Of a stretch of 64,000 nucleotides of DNA, positions 9,060 through 62,874 are shown one piece after another (within the stretch, counting starts at the first letter, position 1; the number at the start of each line of letters is the position of its first letter). A program made the translations under genes and the position numbers. Source of the DNA: a virus (taxonomy: Duplodnaviria > Caudoviricetes); the IMG/VR virus record IMGVR_UViG_3300028886_000045; one strand, given 5' to 3'. A model generated the notes under the pieces. It saw only the letters and a list, made by a program, of their open reading frames with translations. It had not been told where the DNA came from and did no database searches.

Positions 9060-9335
9060 TTAGATTTCTTCATCGCTGAAAGCCTCAGTCATACAAGTTA
9101 ATTTGTATTCAAAGCCATTACCCTTGATAATCACCTCATGGCAACCGCTCATGTCGTACTTATCAGTATCAACGATTTCTACCTCTTCGTCTAAAAGTGA
9201 AACTAACTTTTCAACAGAGATACCCCAAAAATCCCAAAAACCACTCATTTGTGTTTCTTCGATTATCTCGTTTTCTTCACTTACACCACACAACCAAGAA
9301 AGGTAGTTTCTGAAAGTGCTCTTGATTGATTTCAT
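9060..9335 (-). CDS. Acidic hypothetical protein, near-identical paralog of 18350..18625
   Basis: MKSIKST.RNYLSW.CGV...GFWDFWGISVEKLVSLL. Confidence 0.85.
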   Translation of the reverse strand: MKSIKSTFRNYLSWLCGVSEENEIIEETQMSGFWDFWGISVEKLVSLLDEEVEIVDTDKYDMSGCHEVIIKGNGFEYKLTCMTEAFSDEEI

Positions 9336-9534
9336 ATTCTTTGTGACCTTGTTATTCTCTCGGTCGTGAGTTCTAAATTAACTTTGTTTCTTAATTACAA
9401 TGCAAAGGTACTGCTTTTTCTTGAAATATGCAAATTTTTCACCAACTTTTTTCTGCTTTTGTTGAAATTTTAACATTTCACCCCCATAAATAGCAAAAAA
9501 GATGCCCACAAACCTTGTGAGCACCTTATATATA

Positions 9535-57715: not shown

Positions 57716-58045
57716 TTAACCTTTTGAACCGCTTGCACGCCTTACACCGCCCATGTAGGTACTGCGTGAATATTGCTTTTCAAGCGTTCTTTCGTATAAA
57801 GCATCTTGCTCCCCTATTGGTTTTCCCTTTGCTTGTGCGAGCATGGCTTCATACGCCTTTTTATAAGAAGGGGAATTTTGAATGTTTTTGGCATACCTTT
57901 CAGTAATACCCATTACCCTTTGCGCCCTATTCCTAAACTCTTCACTACTTATCTTTTTGGCATCCGCTAACGCCTCATTACGTTCACGGATTCGGAACTC
58001 TTGGTTTGCCAAATCGCTAATACTTTTTGTCCTTCCCTTTGCCAT
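57716..58045 (-). CDS. Small basic protein with C-terminal QYSRSTYMGGVRRASGSKG
   Basis: ORF track; paralog of 58058 and 58553. Confidence 0.85.
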   Translation of the reverse strand: MAKGRTKSISDLANQEFRIRERNEALADAKKISSEEFRNRAQRVMGITERYAKNIQNSPSYKKAYEAMLAQAKGKPIGEQDALYERTLEKQYSRSTYMGGVRRASGSKG

Positions 58046-58057
58046 AACCTATTTTTT

Positions 58058-58402
58058 TTAACCTTTAGAACCACTTGCACGCCTAACGCCACCCATGTAT
58101 GTTGAGCGCGAATATTGGCGTGTTGAAGCCTTTTGTATGTCACGCGCCATAGCACGCAACCTTTCCCTATAATCACCGCTTGCATTATTGCGATTAAAGA
58201 AAGCGTTCTTCGTCTTTTGGTACGAAGGTGTGCTTTCTATATTCCGCAAATACCTATCACCCGTCCGCGCTATCCTTTCCGTGCGCGTCCTAAATGTTTC
58301 TTCGCTTATCTTTCCGCTATCCCTTAATGCAGTAGCCGTATTATAAGCACGTTGATATTGGTTGTATATCTGCTCTGCGGATTTCGTTCTTTGCTTTGCC
58401 AT
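58058..58402 (-). CDS. Small basic protein with C-terminal QYSRSTYMGGVRRASGSKG
   Basis: ORF track. Confidence 0.85.
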   Translation of the reverse strand: MAKQRTKSAEQIYNQYQRAYNTATALRDSGKISEETFRTRTERIARTGDRYLRNIESTPSYQKTKNAFFNRNNASGDYRERLRAMARDIQKASTRQYSRSTYMGGVRRASGSKG

Positions 58403-58405
58403 ATC

Positions 58406-58537
58406 TTAACCTTTTCCACCACTTGCGCGTCTGATTCCACCCATTGCGCCACCATTAAACGCCCTATCACCTAACGCCCTTCTTACATTTCCGCTATATG
58501 CCCTACGGAAATATGCCATTCTCATATCTGTACGCAT
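58406..58537 (-). CDS. 43-aa peptide ending MGGIRRASGGKG (absent from the ORF track)
   Basis: Manual translation MRTDMRMAYFRRAYSGNVRRALGDRAFNGGAMGGIRRASGGKG*. Confidence 0.75.
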   Translation of the reverse strand: MRTDMRMAYFRRAYSGNVRRALGDRAFNGGAMGGIRRASGGKG

Positions 58538-58552
58538 ACCCTAACCCTTTCT

Positions 58553-58894
58553 TTATCCTTTGCCACCACTTGCACGCCTTACACCGCCCATATAGGTGGA
58601 ACGTGAGTATTGACGAGCGTCATTTTTTTCTATATATGGTTTATCTGCTTCAATCAACGACATTCCTGTCAAATGTGCATTCGCCTTATCCATCCTTTTG
58701 ACGGTATTCTGATAGGAAGGGGTTTGGCTGATATTATGCGCATATTTCGCCTCTAACCTTGACGCAGTTTCCTTTCGCGTGTCATATTGCCGACTGTTAT
58801 ATCTTCCTTGTGCCAATCCTTCTTGTGCCAAACTCTGAATACGGATAAATTGATTGTATAAATCGTTAATGCTTTTTGTTTTTTGTTTTGCCAT
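58553..58894 (-). CDS. Small basic protein with C-terminal QYSRSTYMGGVRRASGGKG
   Basis: ORF track; promoter at 58926. Confidence 0.85.
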   Translation of the reverse strand: MAKQKTKSINDLYNQFIRIQSLAQEGLAQGRYNSRQYDTRKETASRLEAKYAHNISQTPSYQNTVKRMDKANAHLTGMSLIEADKPYIEKNDARQYSRSTYMGGVRRASGGKG

Positions 58895-59064: not shown

Positions 59065-59949
59065 CTATTCACTTTCTTCTTCTGAAAATGCGTCATAGTC
59101 ACCATCAATGTCTATAATATCCACCCTTTCCAACATATACGATGCTTGAAGGGTCTTTTCCATTGGGTCGCGGTGCATTTGCTCCATAAACGCCATTTTC
59201 TCAGAGGGGGAGTTGAAACTAAGGATAACGTAACTAAGCATACCCCCATCATTTTCCAAATCGCTTTTGTTGTTTATCCTTTCCTTGATTTTTGCGACTT
59301 CGTTGTGTCTTGCAAGTTGGTTTTCTTCTGTATCTTCGTAGAAATCCACTTTGCGGTTTATCTTCGTGTTTTCTTCTGTTTCTTTGGTCTGCTTATCAAC
59401 CTCTGCAAGTTCCTTGTTTTCCTTTGTCACGTCTTCTTTGCGCCATTGCCTTTCTTCTTTCGGCTTTTCTTCTGCGTCCACTTTCGAGCGTGCCTCCTCT
59501 TCTGCCAAATCCACGACTTCCAAGCCAAGCATTTCCATATCGAAATCGTCAAAGCCCGCGCTCTTGTAGTCTATATCCGACAACATTTCCCTTAACATAT
59601 CATCGTCATATTCACCTTGCGCCTTTCTGTTGTTCATGAAAAGGTTTTGTTCCTTTTCCGTCTGCAAGTCCAACTCTACGACATCAACCCTTAACATATA
59701 GTCGGTTTCCAAGTCGTTCTCGTCATACTTGTTTACCTCGTCCAATATGCTTACTTTCTGATGCCCCGAAACAATATTTCCCGTGGTCTTGTTATAGACA
59801 ATTCCACCCATAACGCCAACCTTTTTCAAGTTAGCCTTCAGTAGTTTGCGCGATTCTTCGCTTATCTTTCGTGGGTTGTATTCCGCTAAGTGTATCTCAC
59901 TCCTCTTGATTTCAACACTTTGCGCTTGCTTTATCTTGCTTTGCTTCAT
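59065..59949 (-). CDS. ParB N-terminal domain protein
   Basis: LAEYNPRKIS...LKKVG.MGGIVYNKTTGNIVSGHQ. Confidence 0.85.
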   Translation of the reverse strand: MKQSKIKQAQSVEIKRSEIHLAEYNPRKISEESRKLLKANLKKVGVMGGIVYNKTTGNIVSGHQKVSILDEVNKYDENDLETDYMLRVDVVELDLQTEKEQNLFMNNRKAQGEYDDDMLREMLSDIDYKSAGFDDFDMEMLGLEVVDLAEEEARSKVDAEEKPKEERQWRKEDVTKENKELAEVDKQTKETEENTKINRKVDFYEDTEENQLARHNEVAKIKERINNKSDLENDGGMLSYVILSFNSPSEKMAFMEQMHRDPMEKTLQASYMLERVDIIDIDGDYDAFSEEESE

Positions 59950-60640
59950 AGTCTGCTATTATTTTGATGCTATACGGAAACTGCTTAATCATACGCGCGT
60001 AATCATTCGGAAACTTTTCGCGCATTACCAACATAGTATCTAAGTCTATACCAAAGCCTTGTGATACCATATTGGGATTATAGACAAACGGCTTTATAAG
60101 ATTTCGCGATTGTATATACTGCAACACTTCTTTGTTTGTCCACACCGCCAAAGGATAAACCATACCCTCCTTCCTTATGTACCCCGTCTTTGCGTACATC
60201 TTCAACCGCATACGCTTCATATAGCCATCAACACCCTTCATGCCACTAAACGCATAGTGCTGTCCGCTATCGTTCCTTACCCATTCCTCAACCTCGCCAA
60301 CACTTCTTTCCCTTTTGTGGTTTGGGTCTTTCTTTGGCAGTTTGTACCTATCGTCTTCATCCATGAAGAAACCGAACTTCTCAAACGCATCCGCTTGATA
60401 GTGCTTTATCTGCCTAACTTCGACATTGCCGTAACTTTCTGCCCACTTGATATAAGGCTGAACGTGGTCTAAATTGGGAACGAGGTACATATAATAGCAA
60501 ATAACCTTATTGAAACGTGTTGCCAACATATCCAATAAGGCTATGCCATCTTTGCCACCCGCAGAATAGAACAAAACGGCTGTGTCCGTTTCCTTGCGGA
60601 CGGTGTTTATTATCGCTATCGTATCAGCAAACTTTCCCAT
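59912..60640 (-). CDS. PAPS-reductase-like PP-loop (adenine nucleotide alpha hydrolase) protein
   Basis: VLFYSAGGKDG, GMKGVD...RM, YPLAVWTNKEV. Confidence 0.8.
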   Translation of the reverse strand: MGKFADTIAIINTVRKETDTAVLFYSAGGKDGIALLDMLATRFNKVICYYMYLVPNLDHVQPYIKWAESYGNVEVRQIKHYQADAFEKFGFFMDEDDRYKLPKKDPNHKRERSVGEVEEWVRNDSGQHYAFSGMKGVDGYMKRMRLKMYAKTGYIRKEGMVYPLAVWTNKEVLQYIQSRNLIKPFVYNPNMVSQGFGIDLDTMLVMREKFPNDYARMIKQFPYSIKIIADYEAKQDKASAKC

Positions 60641-60643
60641 ATC

Positions 60644-61312
60644 CTACAATTTTTTCAGATAATCGTAAACCTCATCTATCGCGGAAACGACCTTTTGGGT
60701 CTTTTCCTTATCCATTGCCATATCGTCACGCATATATATACGCTTGTTTAACTCAATCATAAAAGATAGATACTGCTTGCTACATTGTGGGGTTAGGGAG
60801 TTTCCGTAAGGCGTATTAACGCCCACCTTGAAACCATGCTTTCTGAAAATGTCACAAACTGAATCTATAATATTTTCATTCGGCTTGCTCCAATCGTCAT
60901 TATACCCAATACACACATCCACATCGCTCAACTCCTTTGGGAATGAATGGCAATCTACCAATATAGGGTTTTCGGCTTCTGTCAGCGATTTGCTAATCTT
61001 TGCCAAATAATCCTTTCGCGCGTCCAAAAGAAACTTTCGCGTGCTGTTGTTTAGTGGTTTTCTTGTGGCTCTCCCCATATATTCGTATAGGATGCCTTGA
61101 CCCATGCTTTCCATTATGTCATTTTCCAACCTTTCAACATCGCACACGAAACGCGACCAACCGCAAATGTGTGAAATGATGCCTACCCTATCAAAAATGA
61201 CATCGGTAAACCAATCAGTCCACACATTAACGTACTTTATTACTTCTTTACCCCAACCGAAAAGGAAAACGCCCTTATCGCTTGAATGTGGTATATTCAG
61301 TATAATATCCAT
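60644..61312 (-). CDS. N-formylglutamate amidohydrolase family protein
   Basis: IPHS, TDWFTD, SRFVCDVER, DCHSF, DVCIG, NTPY, MIELNKRIY. Confidence 0.85.
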   Translation of the reverse strand: MDIILNIPHSSDKGVFLFGWGKEVIKYVNVWTDWFTDVIFDRVGIISHICGWSRFVCDVERLENDIMESMGQGILYEYMGRATRKPLNNSTRKFLLDARKDYLAKISKSLTEAENPILVDCHSFPKELSDVDVCIGYNDDWSKPNENIIDSVCDIFRKHGFKVGVNTPYGNSLTPQCSKQYLSFMIELNKRIYMRDDMAMDKEKTQKVVSAIDEVYDYLKKL

Positions 61313-61320
61313 TTCTTTGT

Positions 61321-62034
61321 TTAGCCTTTGCTACCCATTGCCCTTCTCGCGCCATTCGCGACACCACCGCTCCGCTCGTTTCTTATTATTTCCGCTAACT
61401 TATCGTTTCGCGCGTTAATCAAGCGGTCATACGCGGGGTCTTCGTTCTTTTCGCCATAGGACTTATAGGTGTCCATTTTGAAATCCTCTTGCTTGGTGTT
61501 TCTTGCTTTTATCAAGGCACTTAAAGACTTTGGCAAAATCATCGCAACCACATTAGGCTCACCATCCCTTGCTTGGTTATACCCAGTGGGTTCAAAATGA
61601 TGATTAAATGGTATATATCCGAAAGCCTTTGCACCAAATTTCGCATACATACTTGGTAAGTTGCTTTTGCCCGTCCCCTCGAAACAATCCAAGGAACGAC
61701 CTCCATTTGCAACCGCGTGCGCCATGATAGTAGCCATGCCACCTTTTACCCCCGAAACATTGTAAACCGAAACCACGTCCCTTCCGTGCAACGCATATCC
61801 GATTTTTCCGTCTTTAGACATAAAGCACCGATATTCGCTTTTGTTCGCATATTCTTTTTGTTCGTGAACATCTACCATCCACCTATTCGCGCTTGGAATA
61901 CTTGCTTTTGCCTTAGATATTGCGTTAAAGAAACGATTTCCGTTTGTTGGTGACAATTCTATATTTGCGTGTTCAATCCCCGCCTTTGTTAAGGCTTTGA
62001 GCACCGCCTTTCCACTTACCGACTTCTTTCTAAC
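61321..62034 (-). CDS. GNAT-like protein with C-terminal GARRAMGSKG; proposed GTT start at 62034 (track start is the GTG at 62004)
   Basis: DVVSVYN...AVANGGRSLDCFE...LPSMYAKFG resembles acetyltransferase motifs; frame open to the GTT 8 nt after GGAGG. Confidence 0.6.
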   Translation of the reverse strand, partial: VRKKSVSGKAVLKALTKAGIEHANIELSPTNGNRFFNAISKAKASIPSANRWMVDVHEQKEYANKSEYRCFMSKDGKIGYALHGRDVVSVYNVSGVKGGMATIMAHAVANGGRSLDCFEGTGKSNLPSMYAKFGAKAFGYIPFNHHFEPTGYNQARDGEPNVVAMILPKSLSALIKARNTKQEDFKMDTYKSYGEKNEDPAYDRLINARNDKLAEIIRNERSGGVANGARRAMGSKG

Positions 62035-62046
62035 TCAGCAACCCTC

Positions 62047-62244
62047 CTATTGACTTATGAAATCAGCATAGTCTTTTGGTGACATCTTATCACCAATCGC
62101 AGTTCTGATTTCCCTATTGGAAACCGCCCCCATTTCATTCTCCAACTCCCTTTTGGTATAAACGGGCTTTCCGTTCTGTTGCATAGACTCCAACTCCTTT
62201 CTGAGTGCGTCCTTATACTTTTCAATCTGCTTTTCTGTTACCAT
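62047..62244 (-). CDS. Hypothetical protein
   Basis: ORF between the ASCH and GNAT-like genes. Confidence 0.7.
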   Translation of the reverse strand: MVTEKQIEKYKDALRKELESMQQNGKPVYTKRELENEMGAVSNREIRTAIGDKMSPKDYADFISQ

Positions 62245-62256
62245 AACTTACACTTT

Positions 62257-62643
62257 TTACTTGTTTATATTTTCGACATCAAGCACCGCGCCCAAATGAT
62301 ACCACACTTGACTTTCGTAGTATTCAATGCCGTTTTCTTCAAACGTAATATCGTTTCCGTTCTCGTCCACACAGATAACAAACTCCGCGCTTTCCACTTC
62401 CACCAACATACGCGGTGCGTTCTGTCTCCGTCCGTTTATCAGATACAACGCATCATATTCGCGTGGCTTGATTTCCGCGTCCTCATCTTCCATTTCCGCA
62501 ATATACTTGTTTGCATTGCTTGGATATATGTAGCGGTGCTCTACCTTTTGCCTACCTTGCATGATTTCAACGAAATTGTTTCTTGTAATCTGTAAGGTAA
62601 GCACTTTATGATTCTGTGCGTATTCTTTTACTTTTGCGTTCAT
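62257..62643 (-). CDS. ASCH/PUA-like domain protein
   Basis: LTLQITRNNFVEIMQGRQKVEHR...YDALYLING...VEV...YHLGAVL. Confidence 0.75.
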   Translation of the reverse strand: MNAKVKEYAQNHKVLTLQITRNNFVEIMQGRQKVEHRYIYPSNANKYIAEMEDEDAEIKPREYDALYLINGRRQNAPRMLVEVESAEFVICVDENGNDITFEENGIEYYESQVWYHLGAVLDVENINK

Positions 62644-62652
62644 ATTCTTTGT

Positions 62653-62732
62653 TTGTTACGACTTTTTAGGGGTTGTTACGACTTGTTACGAGGGTTGTTA
62701 CGACACAAAACCGTAACAAAAATCGTTACGAC
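62653..62732 (-). repeat. (AA)GTCGTAACAA repeats, 5 direct and 1 inverted, between the tRNA and the ASCH gene
   Basis: Copies at 62653, 62673, 62683, 62695 and 62725; inverted copy at 62712. Confidence 0.85.
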
Positions 62733-62744
62733 CCACCCCCTTTG

Positions 62745-62818
62745 TTGCGGATAAAGGACTCGAACCCTTGACCACTTGCAAGTTAAACAAGTATGCTAAC
62801 CAACTGCACCAATCCGCG
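62745..62818 (-). tRNA. Atypical tRNA with anticodon AAC (Val) and initiator-type acceptor stem (C1xA72)
   Basis: CGCGGAT/ATCCGCA-A, D arm GTGC/GCAT, anticodon arm CTTGT-TTAACTT-GCAAG, T arm AAGGG-TTCGAGT-CCTTT; own promoter at 62828-62859. Confidence 0.85.
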
Positions 62819-62874
62819 ATGTTGGTACAAAGGTACTAATTTTTTCGCGTCCTTACAAAGTTTTACCAACTTTT

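Follow-up and report, generated by a model that had tools for sequence, protein, structure and literature searches.

A tRNA with the anticodon AAC and the acceptor end of a bacterial initiator is encoded in a 64,000-nucleotide stretch of phage DNA (the window), which is part of the 178,667-bp IMG/VR record IMGVR_UViG_3300028886_000045 (40% G+C). About 700 nucleotides (nt) downstream of it, on the same strand, begins a gene for a 237-aa protein whose reading frame is open up to a GUU codon. Protein synthesis in bacteria and phages is held to depend on a single initiator tRNA, charged with formyl-methionine, and to begin at AUG, GUG or UUG. From comparison with related loci we consider it probable that the AAC tRNA is a dedicated, phage-encoded initiator, and that the downstream gene (the target gene) starts at GUU with it. 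A first-pass annotation of the window had proposed such a private initiator, and the proposal gained support from the covariation of codon and anticodon, from conservation across a family of loci, and from the coding character of the extended N-terminus. Sequence near-identical to the window is contained in bovine-gut samples, and the phage comes from the rumen.

The window tRNA has the acceptor end of an initiator

ARAGORN called a tRNA-Val(AAC) at 62744-62818(-), and the Rfam tRNA model matched 62745-62818(-) with 49.5 bits. Direct reading gave an acceptor stem of C1xA72, G2:C71, C3:G70, G4:C69, G5:C68, A6:U67 and U7:A66, followed by the discriminator A73. There is no Watson-Crick pair at 1:72, as in bacterial initiators, and the formyltransferase determinants G2:C71, C3:G70, G4:C69 and A73 are all there. 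An unpaired 1:72 together with these three pairs and A73 is needed by the formyltransferase and disfavours use in elongation. The anticodon loop reads UUAACUU, with a pyrimidine, U, at position 37. An acceptor end like that of tRNA-fMet, the anticodon AAC and a pyrimidine at 37 were what the first-pass annotation had described, and direct reading bears this out.

The identity of the tRNA points to valine. Its anticodon is AAC and not the CAU of methionine identity, and A35, C36 and A73, the determinants of valyl-tRNA synthetase (ValRS), are all present; they fit an elongator tRNA-Val and a valine-charged initiator equally. The paired 1:72 and purine 37 of an elongator tRNA-Val are not found, the window tRNA having C1xA72 and U37.

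The tRNA belongs to a family of apparent initiator descent

Pattern scans of IMG/VR and of JGI metagenomes, which fixed parts of the D arm, anticodon loop and T arm only and left the acceptor end free, gave at least 141 phage loci with at least 40 distinct tRNAs; family counts given below refer to the matches listed. Position 1:72 was unpaired in all 40 tRNAs, through five different mismatches (CxA 23, AxA 12, CxU 3, CxC 1, UxU 1). G2:C71, C3:G70 and A73 were found in 40/40 and G4:C69 in 38/40, none of them demanded by the patterns. The A11:U24 pair of initiators, likewise not demanded, was present in 38/40, the exceptions being the window tRNA and that of a close relative, L002, which have U11:A24. 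The lack of this pair, a caveat of the first-pass annotation, thus holds for these two phages and not for the family. Positions 37-38 were UU in the listed family, 38 of the 40 share the AGGUC variable loop and a near-identical D arm with tRNA-fMet, and for a typical member the best E. coli match was the metZWV initiator cluster. Since 99.5% of the cells of the family cloverleaf were paired and 11 of its 20 pairs showed compensatory changes, these appear to be working tRNAs.

A covariance model (R1) was built from 38 relatives with the window tRNA left out. It scored the window tRNA at 81.9 bits, against 49.5 on the general Rfam model, the E. coli metZWV fMet genes at 73-74 bits and the tRNA-Met(CAU) of this phage at 67.6 bits, and did not match the Arg, Leu or Gln tRNAs of this phage. 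By contrast, ordinary phage tRNA-Val(GAC) with a purine at 37, collected in a control scan, has a paired 1:72 and C11:G24. By these comparisons we take the family to descend from bacterial initiator tRNA-fMet: the acceptor end would have been kept, the anticodon changed to one for valine (A35, C36), and the anticodon arm replaced by one with U37 and U38.

Among 185,579 prokaryote genomes the tRNA pattern matched none, and hence no copy in a host or a prophage came to light. The exact window tRNA pattern had no match in IMG/VR, blastn of the region gave none in a phage GenBank collection, and protein-seeded searches for the locus in IMG/VR found none. The tRNA-Met(CAU) of this phage lies outside the window (G000:C1:9007-9080; L153:208-280). 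It has C1xA72 and the anticodon-stem pairs A29:U41, G30:C40 and G31:C39, and resembles a near-canonical initiator of the phage's own.

The target gene is open to a GUU codon and its extension looks coding

Gene callers annotated the target gene from a GTG, as ORF (open reading frame) 61321-62004 (GTG starts called for P0001 and P0002). The frame is open further upstream to a GTT codon (62034-62032), which an in-frame TGA (62037-62035) immediately precedes and which lies exactly 8 nt after a GGAGG Shine-Dalgarno (SD) sequence. All seven bases of the tRNA loop can pair with the GAGUUAG that contains this codon, through 5 Watson-Crick and 2 G.U pairs. The first-pass description of the site, pairing included, agrees with our reading on every one of these points. 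The TAG of an upstream 65-aa ORF (62049-62047) is in frame with the target gene and forms part of a uAGGAGG-N8-GTY layout conserved among relatives (Y, pyrimidine). A full GGAGG precedes only 6/97 large ATG genes of this phage, and the genes neighbouring the target have no SD. When the 178.7-kb genome was scanned for GAGTTA opening ORFs that lack a start, the target gene was the sole convincing case; because of this, and because the architecture recurs in relatives, the match exceeds chance. A GTC at ~12728(-) was weighed as a further candidate of the window and discarded, since a better ORF with an ATG start overlaps it in a different frame and its translation has a non-coding look.

From the GTT to GTG 62004 the DNA evolves like coding sequence. 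Between these codons L002 (83% protein identity) differs from the window at three positions, and L004-L006, near-identical copies of a 35%-identical homologue, differ at three positions upstream of their called GTG; all 6/6 substitutions are synonymous. L002 has CGA where the window has TGA before the GTT. In L004 the called GTG falls inside an LNKAG motif that aligns with LTKAG of the window protein. No usable in-frame ATG, GTG or TTG lies between the upstream stop and the conserved residues in the window, L004, L007 or L049, and no ATG or GTG start is conserved among the homologues. Homologues that do start at ATG begin with MVKTKVSANERL..., MAKEKRYK... or MAYKKRSN..., which align with VRKKSVSGKAVL of the target protein, and MVKTKVS at the N-terminus of one aligns with VRKKSVS. 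In the AF2 model of the target protein (pLDDT 86), helix 8-17 spans the annotated GTG and would be cut by a start there. The VRKKSV... N-terminus inferred in the first-pass annotation is thus upheld as coding by substitutions, alignment and a confident predicted helix.

The target protein has, by its model, a GNAT fold: the top PDB matches in Foldseek were all GNAT acetyltransferases (prob 0.97-1.0, TM 0.36-0.56). A Pfam search of the protein gave no match. The domain is widespread and also occurs within giant multidomain proteins.

These data bear on the proposal that the tRNA is an ordinary tRNA-Val, serving codon supply or escape from anticodon nucleases, that the gene starts at GTG 62004, and that the GTT match is coincidental. 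The gene callers did place the start there, and both the U11:A24 pair and the absence of the three anticodon-stem G:C pairs of initiators look elongator-like. In addition, there are phage tRNAs with altered anticodon loops that reportedly evade host tRNA-cleaving defences (PMC10264068). However, what precedes the GTG evolves like coding sequence and can be aligned to the N-termini of homologues, the called GTG of L004 sits within a conserved motif, and in another group of relatives (lineage 3) a 53-aa ORF has no canonical start at all. The mismatch at 1:72 in 40/40 tRNAs, as opposed to the pair of ordinary phage tRNA-Val(GAC), also disagrees with it, and the covariation described below speaks against coincidence. 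We regard this proposal as very unlikely.

At window position 62042 the assembly graph splits in two rumen samples. There a short contig has 62042-62071 in common with the window (the last part of the 65-aa ORF together with AGGAGGG) before it runs on into other sequence, with an ATG ~6 nt on; this suggests strain variants in which another gene replaces the GTT-start gene.

Start codons covary with the anticodon

The first-pass annotation had proposed to examine homologous loci for covariation between the anticodon and the codon after the SD. Among dereplicated listed sites, phages whose tRNA has A34 used GTT at 10 starts and GTC at none, and those with G34 used GTC at 42 and GTT at 14. The association of position 34 with the third base of the start codon gave a Fisher p of 9e-6, and of 2e-4 under harsher dereplication. 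Such a pattern would be expected if position 34 pairs with that base, A with U only and G with C or wobble U. The exclusive use of GTT by A34 phages argues that A34 is not converted to inosine. The match extends to a distant homologue of the target, in L004, where the tRNA has GAC and the gene opens at TGA-GTC.

A second covariation may exist next to the codon. Base 37 of E. coli tRNA-fMet has been shown to pair with the mRNA base at -1 (10.1101/2022.05.02.490318). Throughout the scanned family position 37 is U, and position -1 is A. A scan for tRNAs with other bases at 37 gave one initiator-like lineage (L165, L176) with loop CUAACCU, hence C37, a discriminator C and an ASCH gene next to it. 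In L176 the tRNA lies near 9325-9400, and a tagged 44-aa ORF (...GFGLSTG) starts at ~9835, the usual distance from the tRNA. The first codon of this ORF stands in ACCGG-GTT-TTA, where -1 is G and not A, and C37 with G-1 would be the compensatory change predicted by direct 37:-1 pairing.

These patterns are difficult to reconcile with use of the GTT start by host tRNA-fMet, either as a near-cognate or by reinitiation after the 65-aa ORF, with the strong SD helping and the phage tRNA decoding internal GUU only. Coupling would be possible, with 12 nt between the end of the upstream ORF and the GTT, and a GUU-start reporter in E. coli without an engineered tRNA does give a little Met-initiated protein (10.1101/2021.05.25.445580). 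It would be unexplained, however, that A34 phages never use GTC and G34 phages mostly do. Nor would it account for the initiator-type acceptor end, for C37 with G-1, or for the absence of the tRNA beside ATG-start homologues, and lineage 3 has sites without an SD at which the upstream gene is in a different frame. Host initiation at this codon is, in our judgment, quite unlikely.

Start sites in the relatives

ORFs without a canonical start on the tRNA strand of the listed loci opened mainly in three GTN contexts, GA-GTC-A (43), GA-GTT-A (35) and GA-GTC-G (22), the rest being noise. After dereplication at least 66 genes had GA-GTY-R starts (R, purine), and the dominant context across the family was G at -2, A at -1 and R at +4. 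An SD was present at 29/66 listed sites, with a spacing of 8 nt to the GTY in 26 of the 29. An in-frame stop lay at -3 (TGA, 43/66) or at -15 (the TAG of uAGGAGG). G at -5 (60/66) and C at -4 (52/66) were also common (62038-62039 in the window); pairing of these two bases with tRNA positions 40-41 was considered and dropped, since it fits some tRNAs and not that of the window. Most products are small and very basic (VRRKS..., VRKKTYSQ..., VRVNRSTF...) and end in a G-[LM]-S-x-G tag; GTY also starts a ParB-like protein (L129) and homologues of the target protein (L060). That the tRNA licenses one gene, as first supposed, is right for the window phage with its single convincing GAGTTA; the family has 2-4 GTY genes per locus.

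The most serious rival explanation, by our ranking, concerns the reading frame. Host fMet would start at an NTG in the overlapping frame (in the window TTG 62041-62039 or CTG 62038-62036), and a +1 shift would follow at AGUU, which is read as a four-base codon by A34 A35 C36 U37 or has GUU bound out of frame, giving Met-Leu-Val-Arg-Lys.... A TTG, ATG or CTG does stand 1-2 codons before the AGTY in the window, L002, L004 and L049, U37 opposite A would make a 4-bp anticodon, and the resulting MLVRKK resembles the MVKTK of homologues. The yeast Ty3 +1 frameshift site, GCG-AGU-U, reportedly uses tRNA-Val(AAC). An NTG at -4 is, however, an automatic by-product of the conserved TGA. Across the listed sites 15/66 have no ATG, GTG, TTG or CTG at -4 or -7, 2/66 have TAG at -4 and 21/66 only a poor CTG, so that an upstream start, present in the window as TTG and CTG, is absent or closed by a stop at 17/66. 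The 8-nt SD spacing suits the GTY and not a codon 4-7 nt further upstream, and neither the initiator-type acceptor end nor a phage formyltransferase would have a role in a frameshifter acting in the A site. We consider frameshifting unlikely, and initiation at GTY by the phage tRNA the preferred explanation.

Read-through of the TAG of the upstream ORF and of the TGA, whose frames coincide with that of the target in the window and L004, was rejected, as the frame differs in lineage 3 and two stops would have to be passed.

Occurrence of the tRNA and of a formyltransferase gene

Three homologues of the target that start at ATG lie in the same neighbourhood, beside FGase and PAPS-reductase-like genes, and no tRNA was found within the 4.8-20 kb retrieved around them. 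L048 (P0009), a contig of 2.3 kb, likewise lacks the tRNA, and its gene starts at an ordinary ATG. A homologue of fmt, the methionyl-tRNA formyltransferase gene, was detected in 3/5 longer tRNA-bearing relatives tested (TIGR00460, 189-218 bits). Its products have an N-terminal extension of ~90 aa, and the genes have an ordinary ATG start that overlaps the stop of the upstream gene.

How initiation at GUU may work, and what weighs against it

The window tRNA is probably transcribed from its own promoter, at the head of a string formed by tRNA, ASCH gene, 65-aa ORF and target gene. Host ValRS would charge it with valine, and a formyltransferase would then formylate it, the phage's own enzyme in some relatives; in the window phage, which has no fmt, this must be the host enzyme. 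The tRNA is expected to enter the P site of a 30S subunit positioned over the GUU by the GGAGG. Pairing probably extends beyond the codon, U37 with A-1, U38 with G-2 and U33 with A+4, and these 6-7 base pairs between loop and mRNA may offset the loss of the three G:C stem pairs, unless a partner does so. The 237-aa GNAT-like protein would thereby be made as (f)Val-Arg-Lys-Lys-..., and only with the phage tRNA present. As to purpose, beside the switch or defence bypass put forward in the first-pass annotation, we can offer guesses: timing, an N-terminus that escapes methionine removal, or guarding genes from expression outside infection.

Several observations weigh against this explanation, and the anticodon arm is the main mechanistic problem. 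Three consecutive G:C pairs in the anticodon stem are needed for P-site acceptance in E. coli. The anticodon stem of the window tRNA is C-G, U-A, U-A, G-C, U.G, giving U-A, G-C and U.G at 29:41, 30:40 and 31:39, and the D stem has U11:A24. The three G:C pairs occur in 0/40 listed tRNAs; of these positions, 30:40 alone has G:C or C:G, and U.G prevails at 31:39. This caveat of the first-pass annotation thus extends to the entire listed family. An E. coli initiator in which the three pairs were mutated was formylated and did not initiate in wild-type cells (PMC6393288). Furthermore, in blastn the window tRNA is not closest to E. coli fMet, its top matches being weak and to tRNA-Asp. No fmt was found in the 178.7-kb record of the window phage, and a tRNA kept for one GTT-start gene without an fmt makes an odd balance of cost and benefit. 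The covariation counts are dereplicated and not phylogenetically independent, and the compensatory change at 37:-1 is a single lineage. Finally, 81-99% of the sampled words of the window were present in two bovine-gut RNA-library runs, as assembled contigs that are uninformative on transcription, ends and strand.

A wider reading is offered tentatively, with somewhat less than an even chance of being right as a whole. Phages of apparently several host groups would carry a self-contained orthogonal initiation module, made up of a tRNA-Val derived from an initiator, an ASCH-fold protein as obligatory partner and, in some cases, a long Fmt, with which private genes, mostly for small basic virion-type proteins with a G-x-S-x-G C-terminal tag, are started at GUC or GUU through 6-7 bp of loop-mRNA pairing that stands in for the checkpoint of the three G:C pairs. 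AGG and AGY starts would be set by sister tRNAs whose anticodons are CCU, GCU or ACU. This reading draws on contexts of which some have an SD and some have none, and on tRNA bodies of which some are E. coli-like.

The sister tRNAs were seen in L216-L221 (IMG/VR). They are of initiator type (unpaired 1:72, G2:C71, C3:G70, A11:U24, AGGUC variable loop), have UU at 37-38, and may define further private start codons. In L218 a 190-codon ORF without an early start opens at GCTAA-AGG-G, 44 nt past the tRNA(CCU). A tblastn search for the ASCH homologue in these loci found none. A further initiator-like tRNA with loop UUGACGA is located near the end of locus L166, and any targets would lie outside the retrieved sequence.

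Relation to known systems

With tRNA-fMet of E. coli (metZWV, metY) the phage tRNAs share the unpaired 1:72, G2:C71, C3:G70, G4:C69 and A73. They differ in having AAC or GAC instead of CAU and UU instead of AA at 37-38, in lacking the three anticodon-stem G:C pairs, and in being phage-encoded and serving few genes. Engineered tRNA-fMet(GAC) with GUC starts was reportedly described by the Schulman laboratory in 1990. An engineered E. coli initiator with AAC starts proteins at GUU with valine and formyl-valine (Hutvagner et al., 10.1101/2021.05.25.445580); the pair of anticodon and start codon is the same as in the window, as is the expected (f)Val N-terminus. Engineered initiators retain all of the fMet body, three G:C pairs and A37 included; the natural tRNAs differ in their remodelled anticodon arm, are linked to an ASCH gene and sometimes come with an fmt of their own. 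In engineered phage biocontainment, an amber-suppressor initiator tRNA supplied by the host strain reportedly serves UAG starts (10.1101/2024.07.29.605542); in both cases phage genes need a special initiator tRNA, which here the phage carries itself. The Ty3 site shares with the window the use of AGUU as A + GUU for tRNA-Val(AAC); Ty3 shifts within a long ORF by means of an ordinary elongator, whereas many sites here have no upstream start in the other frame.

Full-text literature searches, in which not all journals were covered, returned engineered counterparts only and no natural phage initiator with a non-AUG anticodon. The module looks like a natural, virus-owned second initiator of a kind previously known only from engineered bacteria. 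If this is correct, a second initiator with its own codon and amino acid adds a layer of gene control, with private genes that the host alone could not read and that are invisible to gene callers; every GTY-start gene considered here was mis-annotated or missed. It would offer synthetic biology a ready-made orthogonal initiation system, in a field where AAC/GUU was chosen by design, and would give a concrete function to odd phage tRNAs and possibly to ASCH proteins. It also bears on the roles of the three G:C pairs and of position 37 in P-site selection, as the former seem to have been traded in nature for extended loop-mRNA pairing.

Other features of the locus

Coordinates are collected in Table 1. 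In the window, tRNA, ASCH gene, 65-aa ORF and target gene follow in this order, and the two marks of the family, an adjoining ASCH gene and the downstream GAGTTAG, are both present. The -7 box, which we take to be a promoter from its match to the Bacteroides consensus TAnnTTTG, also precedes the tRNA in L002 (TATCTTTG) and L007 (TACCTTTG). No sigma-70 promoter or terminator was found on the tRNA strand between the tRNA and the target gene. The repeats that separate the tRNA from the ASCH gene resemble operators or iterons, and L002 has ~6 copies of TTCGTAACA at the equivalent place.

Table 1. Features of the tRNA locus in the window, and formyltransferase genes of relatives
Feature	Position	Strand	Remarks
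Putative -7 promoter box TACCTTTG	62828-62835	-	Bacteroidota type TAnnTTTG; ~9 nt before the tRNA 5' end
tRNA, anticodon AAC, probably initiator-derived	62745-62818	-	ARAGORN, Rfam, direct reading; CCA not encoded
Four exact TCGTAACA repeats	62654-62703	-	Degenerate and inverted copies to ~62735; between tRNA and ASCH gene
ASCH-like gene, 128 aa	62257-62643	-	Directly after tRNA; candidate tRNA partner
65-aa ORF	62047-62244	-	Conserved in L002; TAG overlaps SD of target gene
SD GGAGG	62043-62047	-	8 nt before GTT; direct reading
Start context GAGUUAG	62030-62036	-	GUU at 62034-62032; flanks complementary to tRNA loop positions 38-32
Target gene, 237-aa predicted GNAT-fold protein	61321-62034	-	Start VRKKSV..., end tag ...ARRAMGSKG; reading, homologues, AF2
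fmt homologue, ~420-440 aa	L155:994-2307; L157:970-2292; also L156	-	Both Fmt domains; strand is that of L155 and L157

An ASCH homologue adjoins the tRNA in 132/132 listed loci with enough sequence, which makes the protein the obvious candidate for a partner of the tRNA. The AF2 model of the window protein has a pLDDT of 94, and the ten best PDB matches to it are ASCH proteins, at weak E-values (0.04-0.16). The Pfam ASCH model scored the L007 homologue at 20 bits, slightly below its cut-off.

The target gene is followed in the window (59065-61312(-)) by a conserved gene string, whose members resemble FGase (N-formylglutamate amidohydrolase family), PAPS reductase and ParB. The string recurs in distant phages beside the tRNA or a target homologue, in some of them just upstream of terminase. 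Further on, at 57716-58894(-), are four tandem genes for small basic proteins (MAKGRTKS..., MAKQRTKS..., MAKQKTKS... and a 43-aa one) that end in RRASGSKG or RRASGGKG and have ordinary ATG starts without an SD. In other phages, relatives of these proteins (VRKRKTREQIYAQ...GLSNG) have GTC or GTT starts.

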